60,161 nucleotides of DNA. It comes from Candidatus Daviesbacteria bacterium (lineage in GTDB: Bacteria > Patescibacteriota > Microgenomatia > Daviesbacterales > UBA10151). The notes beneath the pieces are model-generated. The model searched no databases. It worked only from the letters and a program-made list of their open reading frames with translations, and was not told the origin of the DNA. This document shows positions 1,867 to 53,624 of the stretch, piece after piece. The first letter of the stretch is position 1. Each line of letters begins with the position of its first letter. A program made the position numbers and the translations under genes. The stretch is from contig DOWS01000020.1 of NCBI GenBank assembly GCA_003519445.1, forward strand, positions 1-60,161, read 5' to 3'.

Positions 1867-3989
1867 ATTCCCTCCTTTGGATTATGCACTAACTTGTATA
1901 TTTTTACCCCCGAAAAATCCCAAAACTTGTCAACCAAAGTCCAACCAAAAGCCGCGATCTCGTGTTTTGGACTGTAAATTGGATCACACACCTCATCTTC
2001 GCAAACCACAAATAGCTGATCAGTTTTTTCAAAAGGTAGTTTTTTAGGCTCATGTCCATAAATTTCCAAATAAAACTGATAAGCCGAATCATAGTTATTT
2101 TTGGCCAAAAGGGCAAAGTTAAATGGTTTATCCTCCGACTCCTTGATTATAAAATTTGCAATATCTTGAGTTTTTTTCAACTGGTTGTTTGGGGGATTGA
2201 CCAGGGGATTTTTTTGTAAATTAACAATAGTAATGATTATTGCCAAACCCGCAATAACCCATTTAAATTTTCTTAAAGCCAGTAAAGATCCCAAAAGAAG
2301 ATACGGGGCAGGATTTAAAAATCCTAAATAATGATCATAAATACCGTTTTGGTAAAAAGAGAGCCCCACTAGGCCAACTATAATCCAAACTGCCAAAATA
2401 ATTTTTCTTTTGATAATCCAATAAATTAAAAGCGTAAAAATAATTAAAGAGAGTAGTATTGCTAATAATGCGTTTTCTCCTGCCATATACCTGCCAATCA
2501 AAACATAGTTATAAATTTCCGGAATTCTGCCAAAGTTAGAAAATAGGTTCATACCTACTGCCTCACCTTTACCAAAAAGCGCAATCACTGCCTTGTAATT
2601 TAAAAAGTTATGCCGGAGGTCAAACCAAAAAAGAGGAGACATAGTAATTAAAAAAGCTGCCAAACCAAGCAGGGTACCTTTTAGAAAATTTTCCTTTGCG
2701 CTTTTTTTCAAAACCTGATAAAACCAAAGTGTCACAATAACGGGTATTAGGATAAGAGCCAAATAGTGCATCTGCAAAGCTGCAGCCAAAGATAAACCAG
2801 TTAAAATAAGCCACAGAAAATTATTGCTTTTTTGCAGTTTCACTATACTCAAAATTGCCAAAAGAGTAAAAAAAGGTAAAGGATTGGGATTCCAGGAAAA
2901 ACGGGAATAATTAATGGTAACCGGGCTGATTGCATAAAGATACGCAGCCAAAAGTCCTGCTCCCCTGCCAAACCATGTTTTCCCCAAATAATAAACCAGA
3001 AAAACCGTGGCCACTCCAATCATAGCTACCATGACAGAGGCCGAAACCGGATTAAAGTTTGTTAAAACCATGGGCGGAAGCATCATGTAATAATAAAGGG
3101 GCCCAAGATAAATATTACCTACGGAAGTGGGCGGGCCTATCAGAGGAAAATGCCATTTATCTATCATATCTTTGACAATAATGGCGTCCCTCCCCTCATC
3201 CCCCAAAAAAATCATATATTCCTCAATTTTATAAAACCTCAAAAATGCAGCCAGCGCTAAAACTCCTACCAGAGCAATAAACAGTATTTTTTGGTCTTTC
3301 AGTTTCCACCAAAGGCGGAGAAGATCCAGAAAGGATTTAACTATTACTTTTATACCCGCTCCTGTTGGTTTTCCGGAAAGCCTTGGATAATGATTAACTC
3401 CTGTTTGTGTTACTTTAAAGCCATATTTTTTTGCCTTAATAGCCAACTCCGCATTTATCATGGCTCCACGGGAGGATTCAAGATGCGGTATCTTTTCTAA
3501 AACACTTTTGCGGATCATTTTAAAACCGCAATCCACATCTTTTAGGGTTAAACCAAAAAAAGCTAAAAGAGAAAGCTTCCAGCCCTTATTAAACAGAATC
3601 CTGAAAAACGGGTCTTGCCTTTTGATACGGTATCCAATAACCAAATCGTAATCTTTGATTTTTTCCAAAAACTTAGTCACCTCGCTAAAGTCGAATTGAC
3701 CATCCCCGTCTGTATAGACTATGGTGTCATATTTGGCATTGTAAAAGCCGCTTTTTAGGGCCTCCCCATAACCTAAATTTTTTGGATGGTTTATGGCCTT
3801 AATCCTTGGGTTTTCTTTAGCCAATTTCTCTGTTTTTTCTTTTGTCCCATCTGTTGATCCGTCGTTTACCAGAATTATTTCATATTCCAGCTTTAGTTTT
3901 TCCAAAACATCTATTGCCTTTTTGACAAGCATTTCAACATTACCTTCTTCATTAAATAGCGGGAAAAATACTGAAAGATTTTTAATCAT
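1863..3989 (-). CDS. Fusion protein: N-terminal GT2 (polyprenyl-phosphate sugar synthase type) plus C-terminal multi-TM GT-C (ArnT/PMT-like) glycosyltransferase
   Basis: N-terminal ~230 aa: FFPLFNEE, LVNDGSTDGT, YTDGDGQFD, DCGFKM. The rest is >10 predicted TM helices starting with GDEGRDAIIVKDM...LIGPPTSVGNIYLGPLYYYMMLP, a motif shared with the ORFs at 21323, 22803 and 25983. Confidence 0.75.
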   Translation of the reverse strand: MIKNLSVFFPLFNEEGNVEMLVKKAIDVLEKLKLEYEIILVNDGSTDGTKEKTEKLAKENPRIKAINHPKNLGYGEALKSGFYNAKYDTIVYTDGDGQFDFSEVTKFLEKIKDYDLVIGYRIKRQDPFFRILFNKGWKLSLLAFFGLTLKDVDCGFKMIRKSVLEKIPHLESSRGAMINAELAIKAKKYGFKVTQTGVNHYPRLSGKPTGAGIKVIVKSFLDLLRLWWKLKDQKILFIALVGVLALAAFLRFYKIEEYMIFLGDEGRDAIIVKDMIDKWHFPLIGPPTSVGNIYLGPLYYYMMLPPMVLTNFNPVSASVMVAMIGVATVFLVYYLGKTWFGRGAGLLAAYLYAISPVTINYSRFSWNPNPLPFFTLLAILSIVKLQKSNNFLWLILTGLSLAAALQMHYLALILIPVIVTLWFYQVLKKSAKENFLKGTLLGLAAFLITMSPLFWFDLRHNFLNYKAVIALFGKGEAVGMNLFSNFGRIPEIYNYVLIGRYMAGENALLAILLSLIIFTLLIYWIIKRKIILAVWIIVGLVGLSFYQNGIYDHYLGFLNPAPYLLLGSLLALRKFKWVIAGLAIIITIVNLQKNPLVNPPNNQLKKTQDIANFIIKESEDKPFNFALLAKNNYDSAYQFYLEIYGHEPKKLPFEKTDQLFVVCEDEVCDPIYSPKHEIAAFGWTLVDKFWDFSGVKIYKLVHNPKEGI

Positions 3990-3992
3990 TTA

Positions 3993-5138
3993 TTGATATA
4001 TAATAGACTAGTGAGTGCTAAATTCAAAGATCTTGCTCTGCTTACAATTATAACAGTTACTTTTACCTTTCTTCTCTGGCTGCCGCATATTTTGGCTATA
4101 CCTAATTTTTGGGGATTATCCTTCAAAGAAGGATTCAATACAATCTACAGGAACTTTGACGGCTTGGAATACATAGTTATTGCCAAAACTTTTTATAATC
4201 CGGAGGCAATTGCAAACTTGCATTTGACCCAACCGGCCGACTATTTTGCCTCTCATTTTCCCGGATACCCCTTACTTATTTCTTTATTTGCCCCTTTTTT
4301 GGGTTATCTTAAATCAATGCTTTTTGTATCTTTGCTGTTTACTGTTTTAAGTGCTTGGGCTTTTTACTTTTTAGTAAAAGATTTTAAACTATCTGCTCAT
4401 CCGCTCACTTTATCCTTAATATTTTTAATCCTACCTGCCAGATGGGTTATAGTCCATTCTATTGGTTCCCCTGAACCGGCTTTTATTTTCTTTATTATTC
4501 TTTCTATTTATTTCTTTTTAAAAAACAAAATTTGGGCAGTTGCGGTTTTTGCAGCCGCAGCTCAACTAATCAGACCACCGGGAATTTTACTTGGCATTGC
4601 TCTGGGCCTCTATATCTTGTGGCAAGGCTACCGGAAAAAATCTGTCAAATATATCCTCTCTTTTTATCCCCTAATCTTTATCCCTCTTACCCTTTTGGGG
4701 ATCTTTTATTGGTATTCCATAACTTATCAAGATTTTTTTGCTTATTTCCATTCCGGAGACAATATCCACTTAACTTTCCCCCCATTTCAAGTATTTAATA
4801 AACATCAATTTTGGGTGGGGGATATTTGGCTGGAAGATGTAGTTTATATTTTTATGCTGGGGTTTTTGGGAGGGATGTTTTTAATAAAACAAAAATTATA
4901 TTCCTTGGCTTTTTTTGTTTTAACCTATCTTACGGCATCAATTTTTGTAGCGCACAGGGATATTTCCAGATATTTACTACCCATAGCCCCTTTTGTAATA
5001 ATAGCTTTTGAAAAAATTCTGGTTTCAAAAGAATTTAAAATAGTTTTGGCAATTTTAGCCCTTACCATTTATCTCTACTCCCAAAACTACATTATTAATA
5101 ATGTAGCCCCAGTTCCCGATTTATCAGTTTATAATTAG
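3993..5138 (+). CDS. Multi-TM GT-C-fold glycosyltransferase, PIG-V/GT76-like
   Basis: About 10 TM helices. RNFDGLEYIVIAKTFY resembles the PIG-V family motif (D-x-x-x-Y-x-x-IA-x-x-GY). The real start may be GTG 4011 (TATAAT 3999-4004 plus 6 nt). Confidence 0.5.
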   Translation: MIYNRLVSAKFKDLALLTIITVTFTFLLWLPHILAIPNFWGLSFKEGFNTIYRNFDGLEYIVIAKTFYNPEAIANLHLTQPADYFASHFPGYPLLISLFAPFLGYLKSMLFVSLLFTVLSAWAFYFLVKDFKLSAHPLTLSLIFLILPARWVIVHSIGSPEPAFIFFIILSIYFFLKNKIWAVAVFAAAAQLIRPPGILLGIALGLYILWQGYRKKSVKYILSFYPLIFIPLTLLGIFYWYSITYQDFFAYFHSGDNIHLTFPPFQVFNKHQFWVGDIWLEDVVYIFMLGFLGGMFLIKQKLYSLAFFVLTYLTASIFVAHRDISRYLLPIAPFVIIAFEKILVSKEFKIVLAILALTIYLYSQNYIINNVAPVPDLSVYN

Positions 5139-6369: not shown

Positions 6370-7557
6370 TTAATCCTCCTGATTTTTCCAGGTGATAAAG
6401 TGGTTCATCAAAAAATTCCAGGTCATTACAAAAGGAATGGTAGCAAAAAAGTAGAAGTTGTTAAAAGCAATATGGCGGCCGAATACATAAATAAATCCGT
6501 CCCCATAAGTTACATGTAAAAACTTAACTATCAAAACTGCCATCACCAATCCCCCAAAACTAACTACATTAAAAATCCCAAATTTTTGCCAAAGATTGGT
6601 TTTTGTTTTTCTGTAACGGAAAGTCCAGTAATTATTTAAAATAAAATTACTGACAATGGCAATTTCCGTAGAAAATCCTTTGGAAGTGGCAGGCGGAAAA
6701 CCGCCCAGATTAATAAATATCTTGTAAAAAAGAAAATCCACCAGTGTCCCCACAAACCCCACCAAACCAAATTTAACAACTGTTTTTGCCCGTCTTGTTA
6801 AATTAAAAAGGGGGATATTTACTCCCCAGCTGTGGAGCCTTGCATCAATGCAATATGTAATCACATCATAGGTGTAATTAAAAACTTTATTTTTGGAATA
6901 ACCTTCCAAACGGTTTTTAAAAATAAGCGGAACTTCTTTGTATTTTGCGCCTGCTAAAATTGCCTCATGCAAAAATGCCGGTTGGACAATAAAAGAAAGT
7001 TCCTGCCAAGGGAGTCTTTGAAAATTTAATTTTTGGAAGAGAGCAGGGGTAAAAGCCCTGGCAGAATTGGTAAATTCCCTGATATCCCTGGGACCCATGA
7101 GTAGCCGGCAAAAAAGCGAGGCCCCGTAAGTAAAAATTCTCCTCCCGATTGAGAGTTGATTTTTGCCTCCCTCAATAAATCTGGAACCAATGGCCAGATC
7201 GTATCCGTCTTCTACGGCTCTAACAAGCCTGACTAAAACATCCGGTACCACCTGCCCATCTGCATCAAGTTGAGCTAAAACGCCGGGGTGAATTTTCTCC
7301 AGGGCATATCTGTGGCCTTTAATAAGCCCCACACCCAACCCGGGATTAACTTTAATCAGTCGTATCCTGCTATTTTTTTTGGAAAGATTTAAAACTATTT
7401 TATCAGTTCCGTCAGAAGACCTGATATCGTCTGCTACAACAATATGTATTTCCCACCCGGGAATATTTTTTTCCTGTTCTAAAACCTTATCAACAGTTCT
7501 TTCAACATTGGCTTTTTCATTAAAGGTAGGAAGGACAACAGAAACAATTTTTTTCAT
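6370..7557 (-). CDS. GT2 polyprenyl-phosphate mannose/glucose synthase fused to a C-terminal GtrA-like 4-TM domain
   Basis: VVLPTFNEK, VVADDIRSSDGT, QLDADGQ. C-terminal FGLVGFVGTLVDFLFY...NNYWTFR is GtrA-like. Confidence 0.8.
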   Translation of the reverse strand: MKKIVSVVLPTFNEKANVERTVDKVLEQEKNIPGWEIHIVVADDIRSSDGTDKIVLNLSKKNSRIRLIKVNPGLGVGLIKGHRYALEKIHPGVLAQLDADGQVVPDVLVRLVRAVEDGYDLAIGSRFIEGGKNQLSIGRRIFTYGASLFCRLLMGPRDIREFTNSARAFTPALFQKLNFQRLPWQELSFIVQPAFLHEAILAGAKYKEVPLIFKNRLEGYSKNKVFNYTYDVITYCIDARLHSWGVNIPLFNLTRRAKTVVKFGLVGFVGTLVDFLFYKIFINLGGFPPATSKGFSTEIAIVSNFILNNYWTFRYRKTKTNLWQKFGIFNVVSFGGLVMAVLIVKFLHVTYGDGFIYVFGRHIAFNNFYFFATIPFVMTWNFLMNHFITWKNQED

Positions 7558-31127: not shown

Positions 31128-31140
31128 CTTTGTTAAAATT

Positions 31141-31180
31141 ACACCCTTGGGGTGGAATAGGTTGACACCTACGGATATTT
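31141..31180 (+). repeat. 40-nt REP-like repeat, orphan copy A
   Basis: acacccttggggtggaataggttgacacctacggatattt. About 95% identical to 49989-50028 and 50706-50745, same orientation. Confidence 0.9.
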
Positions 31181-31221
31181 TAGTTACTTTGAGCCCAAAA
31201 CAATATGAAAATGTTGGAAAT

Positions 31222-31245
31222 TTAGTTAGGATAATGACACTTTTT
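31222..31245 (-). pseudogene. relic copy of the secA 3' end (KKCHYPN-stop)
   Basis: Minus strand aaa aag tgt cat tat cct aac taa versus secA aag aag tgt cat tat cct aat taa (32671-32648). The 17-nt core 31226-31242 is identical to 32652-32668. Confidence 0.75.
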
Positions 31246-31271: not shown

Positions 31272-32630
31272 CTAATAACCAATACTTAGTTTGGCTCTCG
31301 ATAAATCTATTGAAACAAGTGTTTTATTATTTGAGTGATCTTTGAAGAATAGTATTCCATTTTTTTCTTCCGTATATGAATTGATCATCTTATCTCTAAT
31401 TTCTTCTATCTTTGAAGTAGTTTGTGTATTAAACTCCTTTGCCTCCATTAAATTTGTTAATGCTAATTTTTGTAAATCAACTAAATAAACATCTAAGATC
31501 GAACTGATCAGGGGAACTTTGAGACTTGGGCCTCTCCCTACTGCCCGCATAAAGATTATATATCTTTTATCTTGTGATAAGTACGATTGCATGTTTACAT
31601 CTGAGTACGATCTTAGGCTGAGTTCGTCTGAAATTTTCCCATCAAATACTTTTACCGGAAACTCTCCAGAAGCTAAAGAATATACTCCATCGGAGGCGAG
31701 TAGATAATATTTTTCATTAACTTTGGGTGAAATAGATATGAATGTTGGAAACTTTACAATAGGCTTATTTATTACTGAATAAAGTCCATGTTCCTTAATA
31801 TATTTGTCTTGGTCTACGGGGATTTCCTCCCATTGCTTATTCTTATTGTTAAAAATAGAGATATTTCCCTTACAATATGCTCCTATAGATGCAGTGAGTG
31901 TAATAGTATCATTGTCATTAAAAATTGCTTCTGGGAAGCATTGATTTTTATATATGTCTTGTTTTGCATAAGTTTTAATGTAGTCAGTCGTAATATCCAT
32001 TTGCATCACACCATCCCAGGAACTCATCCAAAGAATAAAGCCTTGCGAGGCAAGGGATAAGTTTATTTTACGACCATCGTAAACATGGGGATTATTTTCT
32101 AAATCTTTTCTAATGTCAAAAGGGTTAGGCAAGGGAGGAATTTCACTAAAATATGTTTTAACAATACTGCTGTTCGGTAGATCAATTTTATATAAAACAG
32201 AATAGGTAAGGCTACTATTCTGGGGAAGGTCTTGCCGCTCATAACAACTTATATACAAACTAGTCCCAACAAGAGCTGAATCATTAATACAATCTAAAAC
32301 ATTTGTGTTGTTTTGGCGAATAATTTTTTGGCTGTCAGGGTCATATTCAACTATCTTATTATAGCCAACGATTAATAAGTGATTATTATATTTATGGATC
32401 TGCCGATAATCTATGAAGTGGGGTAAATCATTCAGACTAAGTTTATCAAAATTTGGTACATAATTAATTAAAATATTAGGAATTATCTCATTTTTTACAT
32501 CAGTGCCAATTTTTAATTTTTCTTTTAGTTGAGGCGAAAAAGTTAAAATTCCCACTCCTATAATTGCCAAAATAATAAGAATAAAATATACGGAAACAAA
32601 CCCTCTATGCATTAAAATTAATAATATCAC
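31272..32630 (-). CDS. membrane-anchored hypothetical protein (452 aa), visibly lower GC
   Basis: N-terminal TM, then an Asn/Lys/Ile-rich, beta-rich-looking ectodomain. No motif recognised. Flanked by the secA 3'-end duplication. Confidence 0.5.
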   Translation of the reverse strand: MILLILMHRGFVSVYFILIILAIIGVGILTFSPQLKEKLKIGTDVKNEIIPNILINYVPNFDKLSLNDLPHFIDYRQIHKYNNHLLIVGYNKIVEYDPDSQKIIRQNNTNVLDCINDSALVGTSLYISCYERQDLPQNSSLTYSVLYKIDLPNSSIVKTYFSEIPPLPNPFDIRKDLENNPHVYDGRKINLSLASQGFILWMSSWDGVMQMDITTDYIKTYAKQDIYKNQCFPEAIFNDNDTITLTASIGAYCKGNISIFNNKNKQWEEIPVDQDKYIKEHGLYSVINKPIVKFPTFISISPKVNEKYYLLASDGVYSLASGEFPVKVFDGKISDELSLRSYSDVNMQSYLSQDKRYIIFMRAVGRGPSLKVPLISSILDVYLVDLQKLALTNLMEAKEFNTQTTSKIEEIRDKMINSYTEEKNGILFFKDHSNNKTLVSIDLSRAKLSIGY

Positions 32631-32647: not shown

Positions 32648-35332
32648 TTAATTAGGATAATGACACTTCTTGTATTTTTTGCCGGAACCACAATAACAGG
32701 GATCGTTTCTGCCGATTTTTCCGTGAGTCTTGGTTAGTTGACCTTGTCCTCCATAGGTTTCTTGCGCTATCACCTGCCCACCTCTTTCAATTGTAACTTT
32801 TGTTACTCCACCCTCTTCTGCTTTTCCGGTTTTTACTTCCTTTTTTTCAGTTTCTACCCCGATTTCTATTTCAGGATGTTTTTCCTCCACCGCCTCTTTT
32901 TGTACCAGAGGTGCTTGCTGCTGCAACGCCACTTTATAAATCCTGTGGACTATTTCATAATCTACCTCCACCATTAATTTTTCAAACAAATCAAAACCTT
33001 CTCTTTTATATTCAATTAAAGGATCTCTTTGGGCATACCCCCTAAGCCCTATTCCGGAACGCAGATCATCCATTGTATCAAGATGTTCAATCCATAAAGT
33101 ATCAATGGTATTTAGATAAACAAATACTTCCATTTGTCTTGCCACATCAATTCCCACCTGATTTTCGCGCTGTTCATAAAAATTCCTGGCCAAACCTGTT
33201 AAAAATTCACTTATTTGGGAAGGGTCGGAAAGAGTTGAAATTTTGCTTTCTATATCTTTCTTGCTTTGATCATCAATTGGCGCAATAGTGGAAAACTCCT
33301 CCACGATTTTCCCAACATCCAAACCTTCTTCAGAATGTATGATGACAAGATTTTTAATTTCTCCGGCTACTTTTTCCAGAATTTCCTCTTTCAAAGATGT
33401 ATCTTTTTTCTGCGCTGCTTCCAAAACTCTTTTCCTTACTCCGTAAATAATTTGTCGTTGCTGGTTCATCACATCATCGTATTCAACCGTGTTTTTCCTG
33501 ATGTCAAAATTGTGGCCTTCCACTTTTTTCTGCGCGCCTTCAATGGCTTTTGAAACCAAACCATGTTCGATAGGGGTATCTTCCGGCATTTTAAGAAAAT
33601 CCATCACCCGGGAAACCTGATCTCCTCCAAAAATCCTCATCAGGTCATCTTCCAAAGAAACAAAAAACCTCGACTCACCCGGATCACCCTGGCGGCCTGA
33701 TCTTCCCCGAAGCTGATTATCTATACGGCGGGACTCATGTCTTTCTGTTCCAATCACAAAAAGCCCACCCAATTCTGTAATACCTTTACTTAAAACAATA
33801 TCCACTCCCCTTCCTGCCATATTAGTAGCCACAGTCACAGCGCCTTTTTCTCCTGCATGAGATATAATCTCTGCTTCTTTCTCGTGATTTTTGGCATTTA
33901 AAAGTGCGTGGGATACGCCCTTTCTTTTTAAAAGCTCCGAGAGAAATTCATTTTTTTCAATTGAGGTCGTACCTATCAAAACCGGCTGGCCTTTTTTGTG
34001 AAGCTCCTCCACTAAACCGGCAACTGCAGTGTATTTAGCGCTTATGGTTTTATAAATTGTATCCGCATGATCTACCCTGATCATAGGATTATTAGTTGGA
34101 ATTACCACCACTTCCAGTTTGTAAATTTTATTAAATTCTTCTGCTTCTGTGGCCGCAGTGCCTGTCATACCGGAGAGTTTCACATACATCCTAAAATAAT
34201 TTTGAAAAGAAATGGTAGCCAAAGTTTGAGACTCCTGTTGAATAGCCACTCCTTCTTTAGCCTCAATTGCCTGATGCAAACCCTCGGAATAACGGCGGCC
34301 CATCATTAGCCTGCCGGTAAATTCATCAACAATAATTATCTCTCCGTCTTTAACCACATAATCTTTATCTTTTTCAAATAAGGTTTTTGCTTTTAGGGCC
34401 TGCTCAAGATGATGCAGTGTGGAAAAATCTTTTTCGTAAAGATTATCAACTCCCAACATTTTCTCTATCTTCAAAATACCGTTTTCTGTCATATGGGCAG
34501 TCCGCAGTTTTTCATCCACCACGAAGTCCGACGGTAACAGTGAATTTATCAACTCTACGAATTTAGAATATTTATCAGTTGCCTCCTGTGCCGGCTGGGA
34601 AATAATTAAAGGAGTTCTCGCCTCATCAATTAAAATTGAATCTACCTCGTCAACTACTGCAAAATAGTGACCTCTTTGAACCTGATCCTCCAAACGGAAA
34701 GCCATGTTATCCCGCAGATAATCAAATCCAAACTCATTATTGGTACCATAGGTAATATCTGCCTGGTAAGCCTCTTTTCGCGAAACAGGGCGAAGGTGTT
34801 GCAGTCTTTTGTCATCATGAGATAAATCTTTATATTTTGGATCATACACAAAAGCAGCCTCATGAACAATGGTGGCACATGTGGCTCCCAAAGCATAAAA
34901 AATTGGCCCCATCCATCCACAGTCTCTTTGTGCCAAATAATCATTAACAGTTACAAGATGCACCCCTTTTCCGGCAACAGCATTTAAAAATAGAGCCGGG
35001 GTACTGGATAGGGTTTTTCCTTCGCCTGTTTTTTGCTCCGCAATCCTGCCTTGATGAAGAACCACTGCCGCCATCATCTGTACGTCAAAATGGCGTTGTT
35101 TAATAGTTCTTGAACTTGCTTCCCGAACAGCGGCAAAAGCCTCAGGAAGTAACTCATCCAGACTTTTTCCCCGTTCGTGTTGCAATCTAAACCCGGCAAG
35201 TTTACCCTGAAGTTCTTTATCAGTCAGTTTAGATACTTTTTTTTCAAGAGCATTAATCGCATCAACAATAGGTTTTAGTTTTTTAATCTCCCGCTCATTG
35301 GAATCTAACAGCTTTCCAAAAATTCCTAGCAT
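32648..35332 (-). CDS. secA: preprotein translocase ATPase SecA
   Basis: EQKTGEGKTL (Walker A), VDEVDSILIDEARTPLIIS, TNMAGRGVDI, C-terminal zinc finger CYCGSGKKYKKCH. Confidence 0.95.
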   Translation of the reverse strand: MLGIFGKLLDSNEREIKKLKPIVDAINALEKKVSKLTDKELQGKLAGFRLQHERGKSLDELLPEAFAAVREASSRTIKQRHFDVQMMAAVVLHQGRIAEQKTGEGKTLSSTPALFLNAVAGKGVHLVTVNDYLAQRDCGWMGPIFYALGATCATIVHEAAFVYDPKYKDLSHDDKRLQHLRPVSRKEAYQADITYGTNNEFGFDYLRDNMAFRLEDQVQRGHYFAVVDEVDSILIDEARTPLIISQPAQEATDKYSKFVELINSLLPSDFVVDEKLRTAHMTENGILKIEKMLGVDNLYEKDFSTLHHLEQALKAKTLFEKDKDYVVKDGEIIIVDEFTGRLMMGRRYSEGLHQAIEAKEGVAIQQESQTLATISFQNYFRMYVKLSGMTGTAATEAEEFNKIYKLEVVVIPTNNPMIRVDHADTIYKTISAKYTAVAGLVEELHKKGQPVLIGTTSIEKNEFLSELLKRKGVSHALLNAKNHEKEAEIISHAGEKGAVTVATNMAGRGVDIVLSKGITELGGLFVIGTERHESRRIDNQLRGRSGRQGDPGESRFFVSLEDDLMRIFGGDQVSRVMDFLKMPEDTPIEHGLVSKAIEGAQKKVEGHNFDIRKNTVEYDDVMNQQRQIIYGVRKRVLEAAQKKDTSLKEEILEKVAGEIKNLVIIHSEEGLDVGKIVEEFSTIAPIDDQSKKDIESKISTLSDPSQISEFLTGLARNFYEQRENQVGIDVARQMEVFVYLNTIDTLWIEHLDTMDDLRSGIGLRGYAQRDPLIEYKREGFDLFEKLMVEVDYEIVHRIYKVALQQQAPLVQKEAVEEKHPEIEIGVETEKKEVKTGKAEEGGVTKVTIERGGQVIAQETYGGQGQLTKTHGKIGRNDPCYCGSGKKYKKCHYPN

Positions 35333-49417: not shown

Positions 49418-49951
49418 CTAAAAGTCAATACCTCTTTTAGCCAAAATCCCTTTTTGAAAAGGATGTTTTATTTCTCTCATTTCCGTAGCCAAATCTGCCA
49501 TGTTAATCAATTCCTCCGGCGCATGATGGCCTGTCAGGACTAAATCCACTTGAGTAGGCTTATCCTTAATTAGCTTAACAGCTTTTGATAAAGGAAGCAA
49601 CTTTGAAGAAACAGCCCCTATTAGCTCATCTGCCACTATCACATTCCATTTACCAGATACCAGTTCCTTATATAATAAATCAAAAGTCTCTTTGGCCGCT
49701 TTCTTATGTTCCGCAAGAGGCAGTTTATCCCCTAAAATTTTGACAAAACCTTTTCCTCCCTGAATAATTTTTACCAAAGGGGAAAGTTTTTTAATTCCCG
49801 CTATCTCACCTGTAAACCAGATCTTGCCAAACTGCACTATTAAACATTTCCTCTTATACCCAACAGCCCGCAAAACCAGTCCCAGCGCTGCTGTTGTTTT
49901 CCCCTTGCCTTCACCGGTATATAAAATAACCAGTCCTTTTTCATCACTCAT
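49418..49951 (-). CDS. cobA: cob(I)alamin / cob(I)yrinic acid a,c-diamide adenosyltransferase (CobA/BtuR type)
   Basis: LYTGEGKGKTTAALGLVLRAVG, VIVADELIGA, LVLTGHHAPEELI. Confidence 0.85.
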   Translation of the reverse strand: MSDEKGLVILYTGEGKGKTTAALGLVLRAVGYKRKCLIVQFGKIWFTGEIAGIKKLSPLVKIIQGGKGFVKILGDKLPLAEHKKAAKETFDLLYKELVSGKWNVIVADELIGAVSSKLLPLSKAVKLIKDKPTQVDLVLTGHHAPEELINMADLATEMREIKHPFQKGILAKRGIDF

Positions 49952-49957
49952 GAGCCA

Positions 49958-49966
49958 ATTCTAGCA
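49958..49966 (-). promoter_or_regulatory. extended -10 (TGC-TAGAAT), 6 nt upstream of cobA ATG 49951
   Basis: Minus strand: tgcTAGAAT-tggctc-ATG. Confidence 0.45.
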
Positions 49967-49988
49967 AATATTCTACTGCATCAAATTT

Positions 49989-50028
49989 ACACCCTTGGGG
50001 TGGAATAGGTTGACACCTGCGGATTTTT
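49989..50028 (+). repeat. 40-nt REP-like repeat, copy B (left of the transposase gene)
   Basis: acacccttggggtggaataggttgacacctgcggattttt. Confidence 0.9.
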
Positions 50029-50047
50029 GGATTATATTAGCCTTAAT

Positions 50048-50695
50048 ATGCCTTCAAGAGTTATACCATTTATTAACGGGCAAATATACCATGTTTATAA
50101 TCGCGGAACTGAAAAAAGAAGAATATTTGAAACCCAGCGTGATTATCAAAGATTTCTAAAAACTCTTAATTATTATCATTTAGAAGGGTCAAAGCCAAAG
50201 TTTTCGCAATTTTCCCCAACCAAATCTTTTAAACCAGATTTATCTAAAAAAATAGTAGAAATAATGGCTTATTGCTTAATGCCTAATCACTTCCATTTAC
50301 TTCTAAAACAAGTTCGGGAAGGGGGGATAACTGAATCAGTAAGTAAATTATCAAATAGTTATACAAAGTATTTTAATATTAAACACAGAAGGACCGGATT
50401 ACTGTTACAAGGAGAGTTCAAGTCAGTATTAATAGAAAGCGGCGAACAACTAATCCATGTCTCGCGCTATATCCACCTAAACCCTATCGCCTCTTTTCTT
50501 GTTAAGAATTTGAATGATTATCAATGGTCTTCTTATAAAGAGTATGTTAATAATTTAAAGGGTTTCTGTACAAAAGATGAGGTTTTAGGTTTTTTTAAAC
50601 CTGTCAAATCTTATGAGCAATTTTGTTTAGATCAAGTTTCCTATGCTCAAAGTCTTGAAAGGATTAAACACGCCCTGATTGATATTAACGGTTAA
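50048..50695 (+). CDS. HUH/Y1 tyrosine transposase (IS200-like / REP-associated RAYT type)
   Basis: GQIYHVYNRGTEKRRIFETQRDYQRFL, AYCLMPNHFHLLLKQ (HUH = HFH), SRYIHLNPI (catalytic Tyr), DYQWSSYKEY. Start moved to ATG 50048. TTGACA(50010-15)-17-TATATT(50033-38) lies inside and after repeat B. Confidence 0.8.
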   Translation: MPSRVIPFINGQIYHVYNRGTEKRRIFETQRDYQRFLKTLNYYHLEGSKPKFSQFSPTKSFKPDLSKKIVEIMAYCLMPNHFHLLLKQVREGGITESVSKLSNSYTKYFNIKHRRTGLLLQGEFKSVLIESGEQLIHVSRYIHLNPIASFLVKNLNDYQWSSYKEYVNNLKGFCTKDEVLGFFKPVKSYEQFCLDQVSYAQSLERIKHALIDING

Positions 50696-50705
50696 TTTTT
50701 TATTG

Positions 50706-50745
50706 ACACCCTTGGGGTGGTATAGGTTGACACCTGCGGATTTTT
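50706..50745 (+). repeat. 40-nt REP-like repeat, copy C (right of the transposase gene)
   Basis: acacccttggggtggtataggttgacacctgcggattttt. One mismatch to copy B. Confidence 0.9.
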
Positions 50746-50774
50746 CTGTATTTTTGTGCTTGTAATTTGGAAAG

Positions 50775-51014
50775 TTAAAATATAATTTTCATTATCGCAA
50801 CTAAGGCTATTATTGCCCAAATTAAATTCAATATACCTGATTGATAAACTCTTTTATAAAATGAAACTGCTACTATTCCTGCTGCACCAGTAAAATTTAA
50901 TATTTGATAGAGTAAATCAGTGGGTTTGATAACAGAAAAACTGGATAATGCAAAGGCTGTTATTATGGATATAGTCCCATACCACCCCCCCCATTCAATT
51001 AAAGACTTTTGCAT
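50775..51014 (-). CDS. small 3-TM membrane protein (79 aa)
   Basis: Three hydrophobic helices. Starts 13 nt downstream of the nrdJ stop. Confidence 0.5.
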   Translation of the reverse strand: MQKSLIEWGGWYGTISIITAFALSSFSVIKPTDLLYQILNFTGAAGIVAVSFYKRVYQSGILNLIWAIIALVAIMKIIF

Positions 51015-51026
51015 TATTCTAATATT

Positions 51027-53624
51027 CTAACACATGGAATAACCACAGGAGTGGCATTTTTTGCAGCCTTCTTCCATCACAAAAGAAACACTGCCGCATT
51101 CCGGACAAAGATCAACATTTGTAGAAGGAGTTAAATTTAAAGGAACTTGTTCCACTTCTTCCTCTTTTAAACCATTAAGCGCCAAATCTTCCGCCAACAC
51201 TTTTGCTATAGCATCTGCCAAACTCATTACCCTATTTTTACCAAATCCCACAGAAGATGCCCCACCAATACCTTTGAGCTGGTTGACAATCGCTGCTGCC
51301 ACTTCTTTAGGATCTGCAGGGTGACCATTTCTACCTAATCTTAAAGACAGCGAAACCAATCTTCCCATAGCTTCCGCATCAGCCATGGTATGCATCCCGC
51401 CTTTACCTACTGTAATAAATACCTCAAAAGGGTGATCCTGCTCATCTCTGTTAATAGTAATAAATGCCTCACCCACAGGAGTAGAGATTTTGTAAGTTCT
51501 GCCACGGAGTATCATTGGCCGCTGGGCTACCGGAACTACCTGATCCTTATTAAGGGTAGATGATACATTTAAAACCTGAATGCTTTTGGATCCATCCCTA
51601 TAAATAGTGATTCCACTGCAACCTGTTTCATAAGCCATCATGTATGCAGTTTTCACATCGTCACGGGTGGCACTGTTTGGAAGATTTATTGTTTTAGAAA
51701 CTCCATTATCTGTATATGCCTGAAAAGCTGCCTGCATTTTAACATGCCATGTTGGCTCAATTTCTTGTGCTGTCACAAAAACTTTCTGCCAATCTATTGG
51801 CACATCGTCAAGGCCAGCTACAGACCCATGTTCTAAAACTTTAGCTGCCAGGTCGTCGCTATAAAACCCTTCCCTTTTAGCAATATCTGTAAAAGTCTGA
51901 TTGGCAATAGTTAGTGTCCTATATTCATCACCTTTTGATTTAGCTTTATGGATATAGGCCAAAGCAAAAACCGGTTCAATGCCGGAAGAACAATCTCCGA
52001 TAATAGAAATAGTGCCTGTTGGGGCAATTGTGGTAATTGTTGAATTTCTGATTTGTTTATTGCCCATATAAGCTTTTGACTGCGGCCGATTTTTAAAGGC
52101 AATAGAGTGTTTATCTGCATAAATTGAGTGTTGCCAATTTGGGAAAGCCCCTCTTTCCACAGCCAACTCCTCTGACATCTGATGTCCTTCTTCATTGATA
52201 AATTTCATTACTTTTTCTGCCAGCTCCAAGGCTTGATCAGAATTATATTGAATTTTTAATTTAAAAAGCATATCTGCAAAACCCATTACTCCCAGCCCTA
52301 TTCTTCTATTACCGTGTACTTCATCATAAATCTGTTTCAGGGTATAAGGGTTTGTTTGCACCACATTATCCAAAAAGTGCACTGCCAGTTTTGTTATCTG
52401 ACCTAATCTTTCCCAATCCACACCTGATCCGTCTTCTAAAACAAATTTGCCCAGATTTATAGAACCCAAATTACAAGCATCCCATGGCGCCAGAGGTTGC
52501 TCGCCGCATGGATTTGTGCTCTCTATTGTTTCCAAGGAAGGCACAGGATTAGCAGGAGAATCATTAATCCTGTCAATAAATATCAGTCCCGGGTCTCCGG
52601 TTTTCCAAGCCCGTTCAATAATCTCATCAAAAACCTCTCTTGCATTGAATTTACCAACCACTTTTTTACTGTCAGGATTCACTAAATTAAAATCTTCGCC
52701 TTTTTCCAAAGCTTCCATAAATTTATTTGTCACTGCCACTGAAATATTAAAATTGGCAATCTGTTTATCCAAAAGCAAAGTTTTAACAAAGTCTCTGGCA
52801 GAATCATCCGGCAAAAGCGGAGCAATACCCTCGTAAACCGGTTTGTTTAAGTCATCCAATTCTGCCTTACACCTGATAAATTCTAAAATATCAGGATGGT
52901 CAATCCGCAAAATCCCCATATTAGCCCCTCTTCTGGTCCCACCCTGTTTAATAGATTCTGTGGCAGCATTAAAAACCCGCAAAAACGAAACCGGGCCGGA
53001 GGCCACACCGCCTGTAGTATTAACAATACTGCCCGCAGGTCTAACTCTTGAGAAAGCAAACCCTGTTCCTCCTCCTGTTTGGTGAATCAAAGCCGCATAT
53101 TTTATGGAATCAAATATTTCAGGAAGCGAATCCCCTACAGGAAGCACAAAACAAGCAGAATACTGTAAACCGTTTTGTTTCCCTGCATTCATTATTGTTG
53201 GGGAATTAGGCAAAAATTCTTGACTAACCATCGTTTTGTAAAACTCAACAGCTTTTTGTTGAACTTGTTTCTCGCTTGCTCCAAAATCAAAATCTCCGGA
53301 GGCAATATCATATGCAATATGCCAAAATCTCTCTGCCACTCCCTCCACTACTTCCAAATTTCCACCCTTAAGAAGATATCTTTCTAGTAAAATTTTATTT
53401 GAACTTTCGGAAAATGTGGGAGTAGGTAGATCTGCAGGCATGGGCGGAATTTTTTTGTAACGGGGAACAAATCTTGTTTCAAAACTCCTGTTGTTTCGGT
53501 CCAGTCCATTATGCTTACCATTGGTTTTTCTCTCACCATTTATCTTTCTTTTCTCTATGCTTCTCGGTAAAGAAATTATCTGCAGTATTGGTTTTGTTTG
53601 AATTTGTTTTTTTACTTTTTGCAT
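51027..53624 (-). CDS. nrdJ: class II (adenosylcobalamin-dependent) ribonucleotide reductase
   Basis: NPCGEQPL (catalytic Cys-Glu), TIAPTGTISI, GCSGITIYRDGS, C-terminal CPECGS...CKKCHSCG zinc ribbon. About 65-aa basic N-terminal extension. Confidence 0.9.
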   Translation of the reverse strand: MQKVKKQIQTKPILQIISLPRSIEKRKINGERKTNGKHNGLDRNNRSFETRFVPRYKKIPPMPADLPTPTFSESSNKILLERYLLKGGNLEVVEGVAERFWHIAYDIASGDFDFGASEKQVQQKAVEFYKTMVSQEFLPNSPTIMNAGKQNGLQYSACFVLPVGDSLPEIFDSIKYAALIHQTGGGTGFAFSRVRPAGSIVNTTGGVASGPVSFLRVFNAATESIKQGGTRRGANMGILRIDHPDILEFIRCKAELDDLNKPVYEGIAPLLPDDSARDFVKTLLLDKQIANFNISVAVTNKFMEALEKGEDFNLVNPDSKKVVGKFNAREVFDEIIERAWKTGDPGLIFIDRINDSPANPVPSLETIESTNPCGEQPLAPWDACNLGSINLGKFVLEDGSGVDWERLGQITKLAVHFLDNVVQTNPYTLKQIYDEVHGNRRIGLGVMGFADMLFKLKIQYNSDQALELAEKVMKFINEEGHQMSEELAVERGAFPNWQHSIYADKHSIAFKNRPQSKAYMGNKQIRNSTITTIAPTGTISIIGDCSSGIEPVFALAYIHKAKSKGDEYRTLTIANQTFTDIAKREGFYSDDLAAKVLEHGSVAGLDDVPIDWQKVFVTAQEIEPTWHVKMQAAFQAYTDNGVSKTINLPNSATRDDVKTAYMMAYETGCSGITIYRDGSKSIQVLNVSSTLNKDQVVPVAQRPMILRGRTYKISTPVGEAFITINRDEQDHPFEVFITVGKGGMHTMADAEAMGRLVSLSLRLGRNGHPADPKEVAAAIVNQLKGIGGASSVGFGKNRVMSLADAIAKVLAEDLALNGLKEEEVEQVPLNLTPSTNVDLCPECGSVSFVMEEGCKKCHSCGYSMC

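Follow-up and report, generated by a model that had tools for sequence, protein, structure and literature searches.

About one in four bacterial species has domesticated transposases of the RAYT type, to which, to our knowledge, no cellular role has yet been assigned. The element analyzed here, a gene for a transposase-like protein of the HUH/Y1 superfamily bracketed by two direct copies of a hairpin-containing unit, lies in a 60 161-nt contig of Candidatus Daviesbacteria, a tiny bacterium of groundwater (hereafter the window, that is, the whole analyzed stretch of DNA). Its closest described counterparts are the RAYT (TnpAREP) genes with their repetitive extragenic palindromic (REP) sequences (REPtron; E. 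coli YafM, structure 4ER8), the TIRYTs, and the insertion sequences (IS) of the IS200/IS605 family (IS200, IS608, ISDra2). Within class 2 of TnpAY1 (Quentin et al. 2018, PMC6006769), subclass 2.1 corresponds to RAYT group 1 of Bertels and to most of the TIRYTs (TIRtron) of Di Nocera et al. (PMC6006769, PMC5581495, PMC3733652). In the same sources, no REP-like hairpins are reported for subclass 2.1, and TIRYTs are described as having terminal inverted repeats. The window host belongs to the candidate phyla radiation (CPR; Microgenomates/Daviesbacteria), and the names Microgenomates and Parcubacteria are absent from PMC6006769.

The window element is, in our assessment, likely to be a long-resident, mostly vertically inherited gene of the RAYT/TIRYT class that has direct flanking hairpins of the IS200 kind and few satellite copies. 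Its position between cobA and nrdJ predates the divergence of the sampled Daviesbacteria; the element appears to have been cleanly lost at least once and was relocated a few times. Because the same chromosomal spot is held across many species, this is not an active jumping gene. The initial annotation, made from the window sequence, proposed either a minimal IS or a domesticated RAYT; the RAYT-like alternative is favored, and a recent or active IS is disfavored by the 13 species in which the site is filled and by a divergence like that of the neighboring genes. The loci and contigs of relatives compared with the 60-kb window are labeled by L-numbers (L003, L011, L045 etc.). The element comprises the following features:

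49985..50029, + strand: upstream (left-end, LE) unit, found by pattern match, 74 bits with the covariance model
49987-50005, + strand: LE hairpin with left arm TTACACCC (49987-49994), loop TTG (49995-49997) and right arm GGGTGGAA (49998-50005), followed by TAGGTTGACACCTGCGGATTTTT
50010..50038, + strand: promoter-like site of the Y1 gene, with the -35 element TTGACA at 50010-50015, a 17-nt spacer and the -10 element TATATT at 50033-50038
50048..50695, + strand: HUH/Y1 gene (RAYT-like; TnpAY1 subclass 2.1-type by its motifs), 215 aa
50702..50746, + strand: downstream (right-end, RE) unit, complete and oriented like LE, with the hairpin at 50704-50722

The Y1 protein and its class

The 215-aa open reading frame (ORF) contains the motifs YHVYNRG, MPNHFHLLL, RYIHLNP and DYQWSSY, from which the initial annotation had recognized a Y1 transposase. 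This assignment holds: the protein matches the Pfam family Y1_Tnp (PF01797) with 27.5 bits, over the gathering cut-off of 23 bits, and is a member of the Y1 HUH superfamily with intact HUH and tyrosine residues. The HUH motif is H81-F-H83 and the catalytic tyrosine is Y141 in YIHLNP; H81, H83, Y141-I-H-L-N-P and W160-S-S are unchanged across a 22-member alignment. The sole match among the NCBIfam models is the RAYT model REP_Tyr_transpos (52.2 bits, E=5.8e-14; below the equivalog cut-off of 80 bits), and none of the IS200 models of NCBIfam match the protein at E≤0.01.

Homologs of the Y1 protein number in the thousands among the 5.8 billion proteins searched. The best 120 are 62-100% identical to it and about 215 aa long, and the named ones among these come from Daviesbacteria or Microgenomates. 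An exhaustive scan of the representatives of 50%-identity clusters yielded 435 clusters with E≤1e-30 and 10,568 with E≤1e-10, and the best 150 clusters listed are mostly full-length matches of ~210-230 aa. The protein belongs to a large family with a common C-terminal extension, which in the window protein spans ~70 aa and includes WSSY.

Because the sequence searches of the Protein Data Bank (PDB; phmmer and profile) gave marginal matches (E 0.04-0.27), in which the Y1 motifs align with HMH and YIYINP of 4er8 (E. coli TnpAREP) and with HVH of ISDra2 TnpA, a comparison of folds was needed. The AlphaFold model of the protein has a mean predicted local distance difference test (pLDDT) score of 72, with 80-91 in the core; for the C-terminal 70 aa, helices are modeled at low confidence. 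The best PDB match of this model in a Foldseek search is 4er8, the complex of E. coli RAYT with a REP hairpin (E=2e-5), followed by 2xo6, 2xm3 and 2a6m (ISDra2 and IS608 TnpA), with the matches spanning E-values from 2e-5 to 4e-4.

The combination of NHFH, YIHLNP and SS agrees with the motifs NH[YF]H, Y[IV]HLNP and SS of TnpAY1 subclass 2.1, and the length of more than 200 aa is also shared with this subclass (motifs and lengths as in Table 1 of PMC6006769; the assignment here is by motif comparison only). Unlike the proteins of IS200 subclass 1.1, which have Y---Q and ~150 aa, and of the IS200/IS605 family in general, the window protein has YIHLNP and is 60 aa longer. With the RAYTs, it shares the Y1 HUH domain, the Y---NP motif and the best fold match; it differs from the described ones in its length of 215 aa with the C-terminal extension and in the RAYT model score. 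It also differs from subclass 2.1 proteins in that no DnaA_C or helix-turn-helix (HTH) tail (Bac_DnaA_C, HTH_23 or HTH_28) is detected by Pfam, Y1_Tnp being the only domain. In its intermediate, in part IS-like behavior, the element resembles the TIRYTs. The predicted enzyme is a nuclease-ligase for single-stranded DNA with one HUH/Y1 domain, of the kind found in TnpAY1 subclass 2.1. As for a connection to defense or phages, PADLOC gave no match, and PHROGs gave only a weak match to a family of unknown function.

The hairpin unit and its coupling to the Y1 gene

The window has exactly three matches to a degenerate 40-mer, always on the + strand (31141-31180, 49989-50028 and 50706-50745), with 0.00 matches expected from dinucleotide-preserving shuffles, so that the three copies reported initially, including the orphan at 31141, are confirmed. 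Each half of the 40-mer alone recovers the same three sites, and so does a covariance model of the unit, which was trained on 21 sites, applied at a significance level of E≤1e-3 to 346 kb including the window, and finds no other units in the latter. The upstream 40-mer is separated by 19 nt from the ATG of the Y1 gene, and the downstream one by 10 nt from its stop codon; an orthologous unit is located ~20 nt 5' of Y1 in every species examined.

The copies of the 40-nt repeat are thus real, but the conserved unit is longer. Alignment of independent sites extends it to ~45-62 nt, with four to five conserved nucleotides on the left (aCTTC|CACCC in most species) and, on the right, TGCGGATTTTT, which is conserved outside the searched pattern and is followed by a weaker block of ~20 nt (cTTTGAGCCtAA). 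The stem is also longer than initially described, a perfect 8-bp one in most species (TTCCACCC-TTG-GGGTGGAA); in the clade of the window, the stem arm is TTACACCC, which introduces one mismatch. Copies 31141 and 49989 are preceded by TT, yielding TTAC, and copy 50706 by TG, yielding TTGAC, in agreement with the initial annotation if its copies A, B and C follow the coordinate order. However, because the 8-bp stem takes in these bases, TTAC is part of the stem and not a separate target tetranucleotide akin to that of IS608.

Folding of a single copy as single-stranded DNA (ssDNA), a check proposed along with the repeat, gives structures better than those of shuffled sequences, but only modestly so (z about -2.3 to -2.5), and accordingly, the case for the hairpin rests on comparative data. 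In an alignment that includes diverged variants, 87% of the cells of this hairpin are paired, with changes on both sides at the two outer pairs. The alternative helix GGGTG/CACCT is 92% paired and invariant, and hence shows no covariation. A second small hairpin predicted by folding (AGGT/ACCT) was rejected: it is 74% paired, is lost in the GTAT variants and is broken by T-to-C changes. Further candidates were rejected, too, namely, a known RNA family (nothing at any unit in the window and 18 loci at the Rfam gathering thresholds) and an intrinsic terminator (none in 49900-50850; the hairpin has no trailing T-run).

Compared with the repeats of the described systems, the unit is a mixture. Neither GTAG nor GTGG is present as a foot at the hairpin on either strand, in contrast to REPs, and the flanking copies are direct rather than inverted pairs (REPINs, BIMEs). 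Subclass 2.1 and TIRYT repeats include a GGGG-rich motif, and the unit segment GGGGTGGA matches six of the eight positions of GGGGWSAS, but here the gene has a hairpin unit in direct orientation on either side and not terminal inverted repeats. In IS200/IS605, the two ends are distinct, whereas LE and RE are near-identical units.

The apparent ‘ultra-conservation' of the 40-mer was rejected as largely due to ascertainment bias. The collection scans employed the exact core pattern only (26-27 specified bases) and yielded 10 loci from GTDB species representatives and 25 metagenome contigs. In five loci that were retrieved through the protein, with no bias toward the DNA pattern, the unit is 72-84% identical to that of the window, the coding DNA being 67-71% identical and adjacent non-coding sequence 53-72%.

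In the same protein-retrieved loci, the hairpins of LE and RE have changed jointly in each species. The L045 hairpin is TCCACCT-CCG-AGGTGGA on the upstream side and TCCACCT-CGG-AGGTGGA on the downstream side, with the inner C-G pair changed to T-A in both; that of L047 is CCACCCC-G-GGGGTGG at each end, together with a common TTCGAATG 5' of the hairpin; L044 and L046 have GTCCACCC-TTG-GGGTGGAT at each end. The RE forms a complete unit in the window, L011, L021/L026, L044 and L046, and a half unit, consisting of the hairpin and AAGCTA right past the stop codon, in L003, L006, L007, L008, L033, L036, L043, L045 and L047.

Two paralogous Y1 genes (in L011 and L018), which encode proteins 52-54% identical to the window protein, are flanked on both sides by different 13-nt palindromes of the same geometry. 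The L011 paralog (3412-4184) has CACTCCTGGTGTG, which is inverted between the two ends, and the L018 paralog (100-900) has AACCTCCGAGGTT as REPIN-like inverted doublets at both ends, the only such case. Solo copies of the paralog-specific hairpins were not found in 408 kb, which is too little sequence for a conclusion. A separate observation is that the L011 paralog and the adjoining Lactamase_B gene are missing at the corresponding site of the window's genome. A Y1 gene located between lineage-specific hairpin repeats that also occur solo, with a repeat type of its own for each paralog, is a feature of RAYT systems as well, and these sequence comparisons support a functional tie between the repeats and the Y1 gene.

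Residence, promoter and strand polarity

The neighbors of the element are:

49418..49951, - strand: cobA (ATP:corrinoid adenosyltransferase; Pfam PF02572, 180 bits), the left neighbor
50775..53624, - strand: right neighbors, a 79-aa ORF (50775-51014; a CBU_0592-family match is on record) and nrdJ (51027-53624)

The contig of the window was identified as MFDW01000019.1 of GCA_001777435.1. The gene order Lon-CobA-Y1-NrdJ-NrdR is common to 13 separate species or contigs (the window, L011, L021/L026, L003, L006, L007, L008/L029, L033, L036, L043, L044, L045 and L047). Across this set, the identity to the window is 62-95% for Y1, 62-89% for CobA, 80-98% for Lon and ~70-92% for NrdJ, that is, Y1 has diverged about as much as its neighbors, and the neighbor-joining tree of Y1 is roughly congruent with that of CobA, Lon and NrdJ. 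An identical Y1 protein recurs across many samples, each time in an unchanged context, and near-identical copies within a genome or locus were not detected, with one copy in the 60-kb window. Low copy number, vertical inheritance and synteny across species are typical of RAYTs.

The empty site anticipated by the initial annotation, where cobA abuts the 79-aa ORF and nrdJ, is present in L041 (GCA_900217965.1) and L042. In both, the start of cobA is followed by ~26 nt, the stop codon of the homolog of the 79-aa ORF, and nrdJ, with neither the Y1 gene nor any unit left. In the host tree, which is approximate and midpoint-rooted, L041 and L042 are the sister group of the window clade and are nested among filled species, so that clean loss is favored over independent gains. 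In three lineages (L018/L038, L025 and L046), the element occupies other loci, which indicates that it moved occasionally. One of these copies, the Y1 gene of L018 (5975-6610), contains an in-frame TGA in place of the leucine codon in RYIH(L)NP, and L038 has an intact gene at the same locus (438-1073); the TGA points either to a variant pseudogene within the population or to an error of sequencing.

What lies between RE and nrdJ is variable: the slot contains the 79-aa ORF in the window, an unassigned 91-aa ORF in L043, a 143-aa one in L044, a 207-aa one in L045 and a NUDIX gene in L047, and is empty in L011, L026, L003 and L007. The nrdJ gene of L007 (2476-6282) itself is a 1268-aa ORF with an insert of ~1.3 kb between residues 229 and 230 of the window NrdJ, which is probably an intein.

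These data bear directly on the possibility that the element is an autonomous, active, minimal IS200-type IS of ~760 bp, with the segment from LE to RE excised as a single-stranded circle and reinserted. Such an IS would account for the direct subterminal hairpins at both ends of a one-gene element of ~0.76 kb, for the clean empty sites that keep no unit, for the other loci occupied in L018/L038, L025 and L046, and for two paralogs that may lie 7 kb or less apart. IS200/IS605 elements are indeed similar in having a length of ~0.7 kb, a single Y1 gene, same-strand subterminal hairpins at both ends, a promoter in the left end, clean empty sites with no obvious target duplication, and a strand-polar distribution. 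We nevertheless consider an active IS unlikely: a single site is filled in 13 species with a divergence like that of housekeeping neighbors, an identical protein has one constant context in many samples, near-identical copies are lacking, with paralogs that are only 52-54% identical, and the protein departs from IS200 in motif (Y---NP, not Y---Q), length (215 aa, not ~150) and NCBIfam matches. In contrast to IS200/IS605, there are no multiple identical copies here, and the element has been resident at one locus across species.

The promoter suggested initially for the Y1 gene, TTGACA with TATATT 17 nt downstream, turned out to be the top promoter-like site of the region in a promoter scan, matching 11 of the 12 consensus positions. 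Its -35 element falls inside the LE unit, and the ATG follows 9 nt past the -10 element with no Shine-Dalgarno sequence, which suggests a leaderless or near-leaderless mRNA; the arrangement of -35, -10 and ATG is kept in all orthologs. The upstream unit thus appears to double as the Y1 promoter, at the level of consensus match and with a deduced start site. The RE contains a weaker promoter-like site, TTGACA-16-TATTTT. The divergent cobA gene also looks leaderless, with an extended -10 element (TGCTAGAAT), 6 nt and the ATG. More generally, many genes appear to be leaderless, with an extended -10 element TGnTAnAAT, 6 nt and a start codon with no Shine-Dalgarno sequence (cobA, nnrD and murE; window 49952-49965).

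All listed occurrences of the unit (~18-20 independent sites), taken in the sense of Y1, are on the strand with negative GC skew, that is, the C-rich strand of the locus. At third codon positions, the sense-strand skew is +0.20 in genes opposite to the unit and -0.10 in genes on the unit strand, so that the polarity is not just an effect of transcription. The leading strand is usually G-rich, and under this rule, the complement of the unit would be on the lagging-strand template and the Y1 gene would be oriented head-on to replication. Such strict polarity is predicted by a replication-coupled mechanism acting on ssDNA. The GC-skew polarity is opposite to that of an IS608-like element in which the sense strand is active.

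The promoter and the polarity are both relevant to a different explanation, namely, that the unit is a transcription-control module, a palindromic operator combined with a -35 element, to which the Y1 protein is either unrelated or relevant only as a sequence-specific DNA-binding regulator. At the Y1 gene, TTGACA is rightly spaced to the -10 element, units are located just 5' of separate canonical promoters in L005/L019 and L022 (toxin-antitoxin genes) and 5' of a Bro-N gene in L034, and usually lie 27-60 nt from the start of a divergent leaderless gene. Still, this explanation appears improbable to us. Most solo units have a degenerate -10 element and point at a convergent gene from its 3' side, the half units at RE consist of a hairpin without a -35 element right past the stop codon, the HUH and tyrosine residues are invariant although unneeded for pure DNA binding, and strict skew polarity of the replication type is unexpected of an operator. 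Furthermore, the -10 element of the divergent gene is found anywhere from 17 to 33 nt away from the unit, a spread that also led to the rejection of the unit as a fixed-distance -35/UP element of that gene.

Solo units, possible mechanism and implications

The third copy of the unit in the window stands alone:

31137..31203, + strand: solo unit, comprising the 40-mer at 31141-31180 and a diverged extension TAGTTACTTTGAGCCCAAAAC

It has the nnrD start (31112, - strand) on one side and, on the other, a 452-aa ORF, also on the - strand, with its stop at 31272. In L048 and L049, secA directly abuts nnrD, with neither a unit nor a 452-aa gene, and in L050, a YfhO-like gene occupies the secA-nnrD junction. 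The last codons of secA (TGTCATTATCCTAA...) are duplicated beyond the 452-aa ORF (31226-31239 and 32652-32665, - strand), so that a direct repeat of ~20 nt brackets the ORF, which looks like an accessory-gene insertion that re-created the 3' end of secA.

From the orphan copy, the initial annotation had argued for REP-like dissemination, for which we find weak evidence. The GTDB scan shows one to three exact cores per metagenome-assembled genome (MAG), where the MAGs are incomplete and exact patterns only are counted; this would correspond to a handful of solo copies per genome compared with tens to hundreds for REPs. The covariance model adds diverged copies, including a second subfamily (GTCCACCTGGGGGGTGGATTAG...), always in the orientation of the exact copy of the respective locus. 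REPIN-like inverted doublets of the window unit type were sought, and there are none among the significant covariance-model matches in 346 kb.

Orthologous solo units lie between ftsI and murE in L010, L028/L039, L034 and L035. In L034 (5006-6071), two units with ~75 nt of common flank, in which a remnant of the 3' end of ftsI is included, bracket a Bro-N gene, and a gene for a GNAT acetyltransferase is located just past the second unit, before murE; in other species, there is a single unit between ftsI and murE. In L022 (6472-7555), tandem modules of AbrB-like/PIN toxin-antitoxin genes each follow ~100 nt of repeated DNA with a unit plus a TTGACA-N17-TAnnnT promoter separate from it. In the L022 unit at 6472, a 27-nt GC-rich palindrome interrupts the second half. 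L020 and L030 share the right flank and differ in the left flank, and the breakpoint coincides with the left end of the unit.

Several smaller observations concern the units and their surroundings. The left edge of the hairpin shows micro-duplications: gccgACACCC is present three times in L006 (~4298-4345), CTTCCACCC twice in L016 (~6733-6745), and there is an extra ACACCCTTGGGGTA in L023 (~1170-1195). They may have arisen by slippage or may be traces of recurrent cleavage and ligation. In L005 (4241-4630), and likewise where L019 begins, a truncated unit precedes a canonical TTGACA-N17-TATAAT promoter, ~390 nt of conserved non-coding DNA and a tRNA gene. Rfam reports the tRNA only, and the ~390-nt stretch may be an unannotated structured RNA. 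A DUF3800-II RNA (Rfam RF02961, 60 bits) is encoded in L016 (4174-4247, - strand), ~2.5 kb from the unit.

That the units are attachment-like recombination sites for cassettes, with unit-gene-unit as the filled state and the solo unit as the empty one, is very unlikely despite the unit-gene-unit arrangements of Y1 in the window, Bro-N in L034 and the PIN toxin-antitoxin module in L022 and the variable accessory genes adjacent to units (the slot between RE and nrdJ; the secA-nnrD junction, which is empty or contains either the 452-aa gene with a unit or YfhO), because the empty sites between cobA and the 79-aa ORF lack a solo unit, the duplications in L034 and L022 reach well past the unit, suggestive of segmental duplication rather than precise exchange, and intergenic hot spots gather insertions for trivial reasons.

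In the mechanism that would go with a long-resident RAYT-class gene, the Y1 protein would bind the hairpin, with its 8-bp stem and 3-nt loop, in ssDNA at the replication fork and would cleave beside it through a 5'-phosphotyrosine intermediate. Occasionally, this would lead to excision, movement or copying of the LE-gene-RE segment or of single units. Given that the upstream unit appears to supply the -35 element of the leaderless Y1 promoter, binding of the protein at this unit could also autoregulate its expression.

Several points weigh against this interpretation. The score with the RAYT model is below the equivalog level, the observed copy number of the unit, in exact cores per MAG, is far below that of classical REPs, and the unit type has neither a GT[AG]G foot nor inverted doublets. 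The seeming 100% conservation of the core is inflated because the loci were found by means of the exact core, and part of the conservation of the unit could reflect transcription because its second half is a promoter element. The sense strand of Y1 is the C-rich one, which under the usual skew rule would be the leading-strand template, opposite to the expectation from IS608 if the sense strand is the active one. Finally, binding, cleavage and the choice of the active strand are all predicted.

A broader and, in our opinion, rather improbable extension is that the Y1 gene and the strand-polar units constitute a host-integrated, replication-coupled ssDNA recombination system of CPR bacteria, responsible for the capture, duplication and loss of cassettes at a few fixed intergenic sites. 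If so, the Y1 gene itself, the toxin-antitoxin modules, the Bro-N gene and the 452-aa ORF would be candidate cassettes, and the RAYTs of subclass 2.1 would gain a defined substrate, a hairpin with an 8-bp stem and a 3-nt loop followed by TTGACACCTGCGGA.

For genome annotation, the case is a caution that ‘transposase' at this locus is not a sign of recent mobility, nor of an assembly or insertion artefact. Subclass 2.1, or group 1, is the largest group of RAYTs, and the window locus offers for it a simple, testable candidate pair of enzyme and substrate, with the cognate hairpin on both sides of the gene, co-variation of the two hairpins, a clean empty site and strict polarity. The hosts have very small, repeat-poor genomes, which makes the system tractable both for assays and for tracing the vertical persistence of the element.

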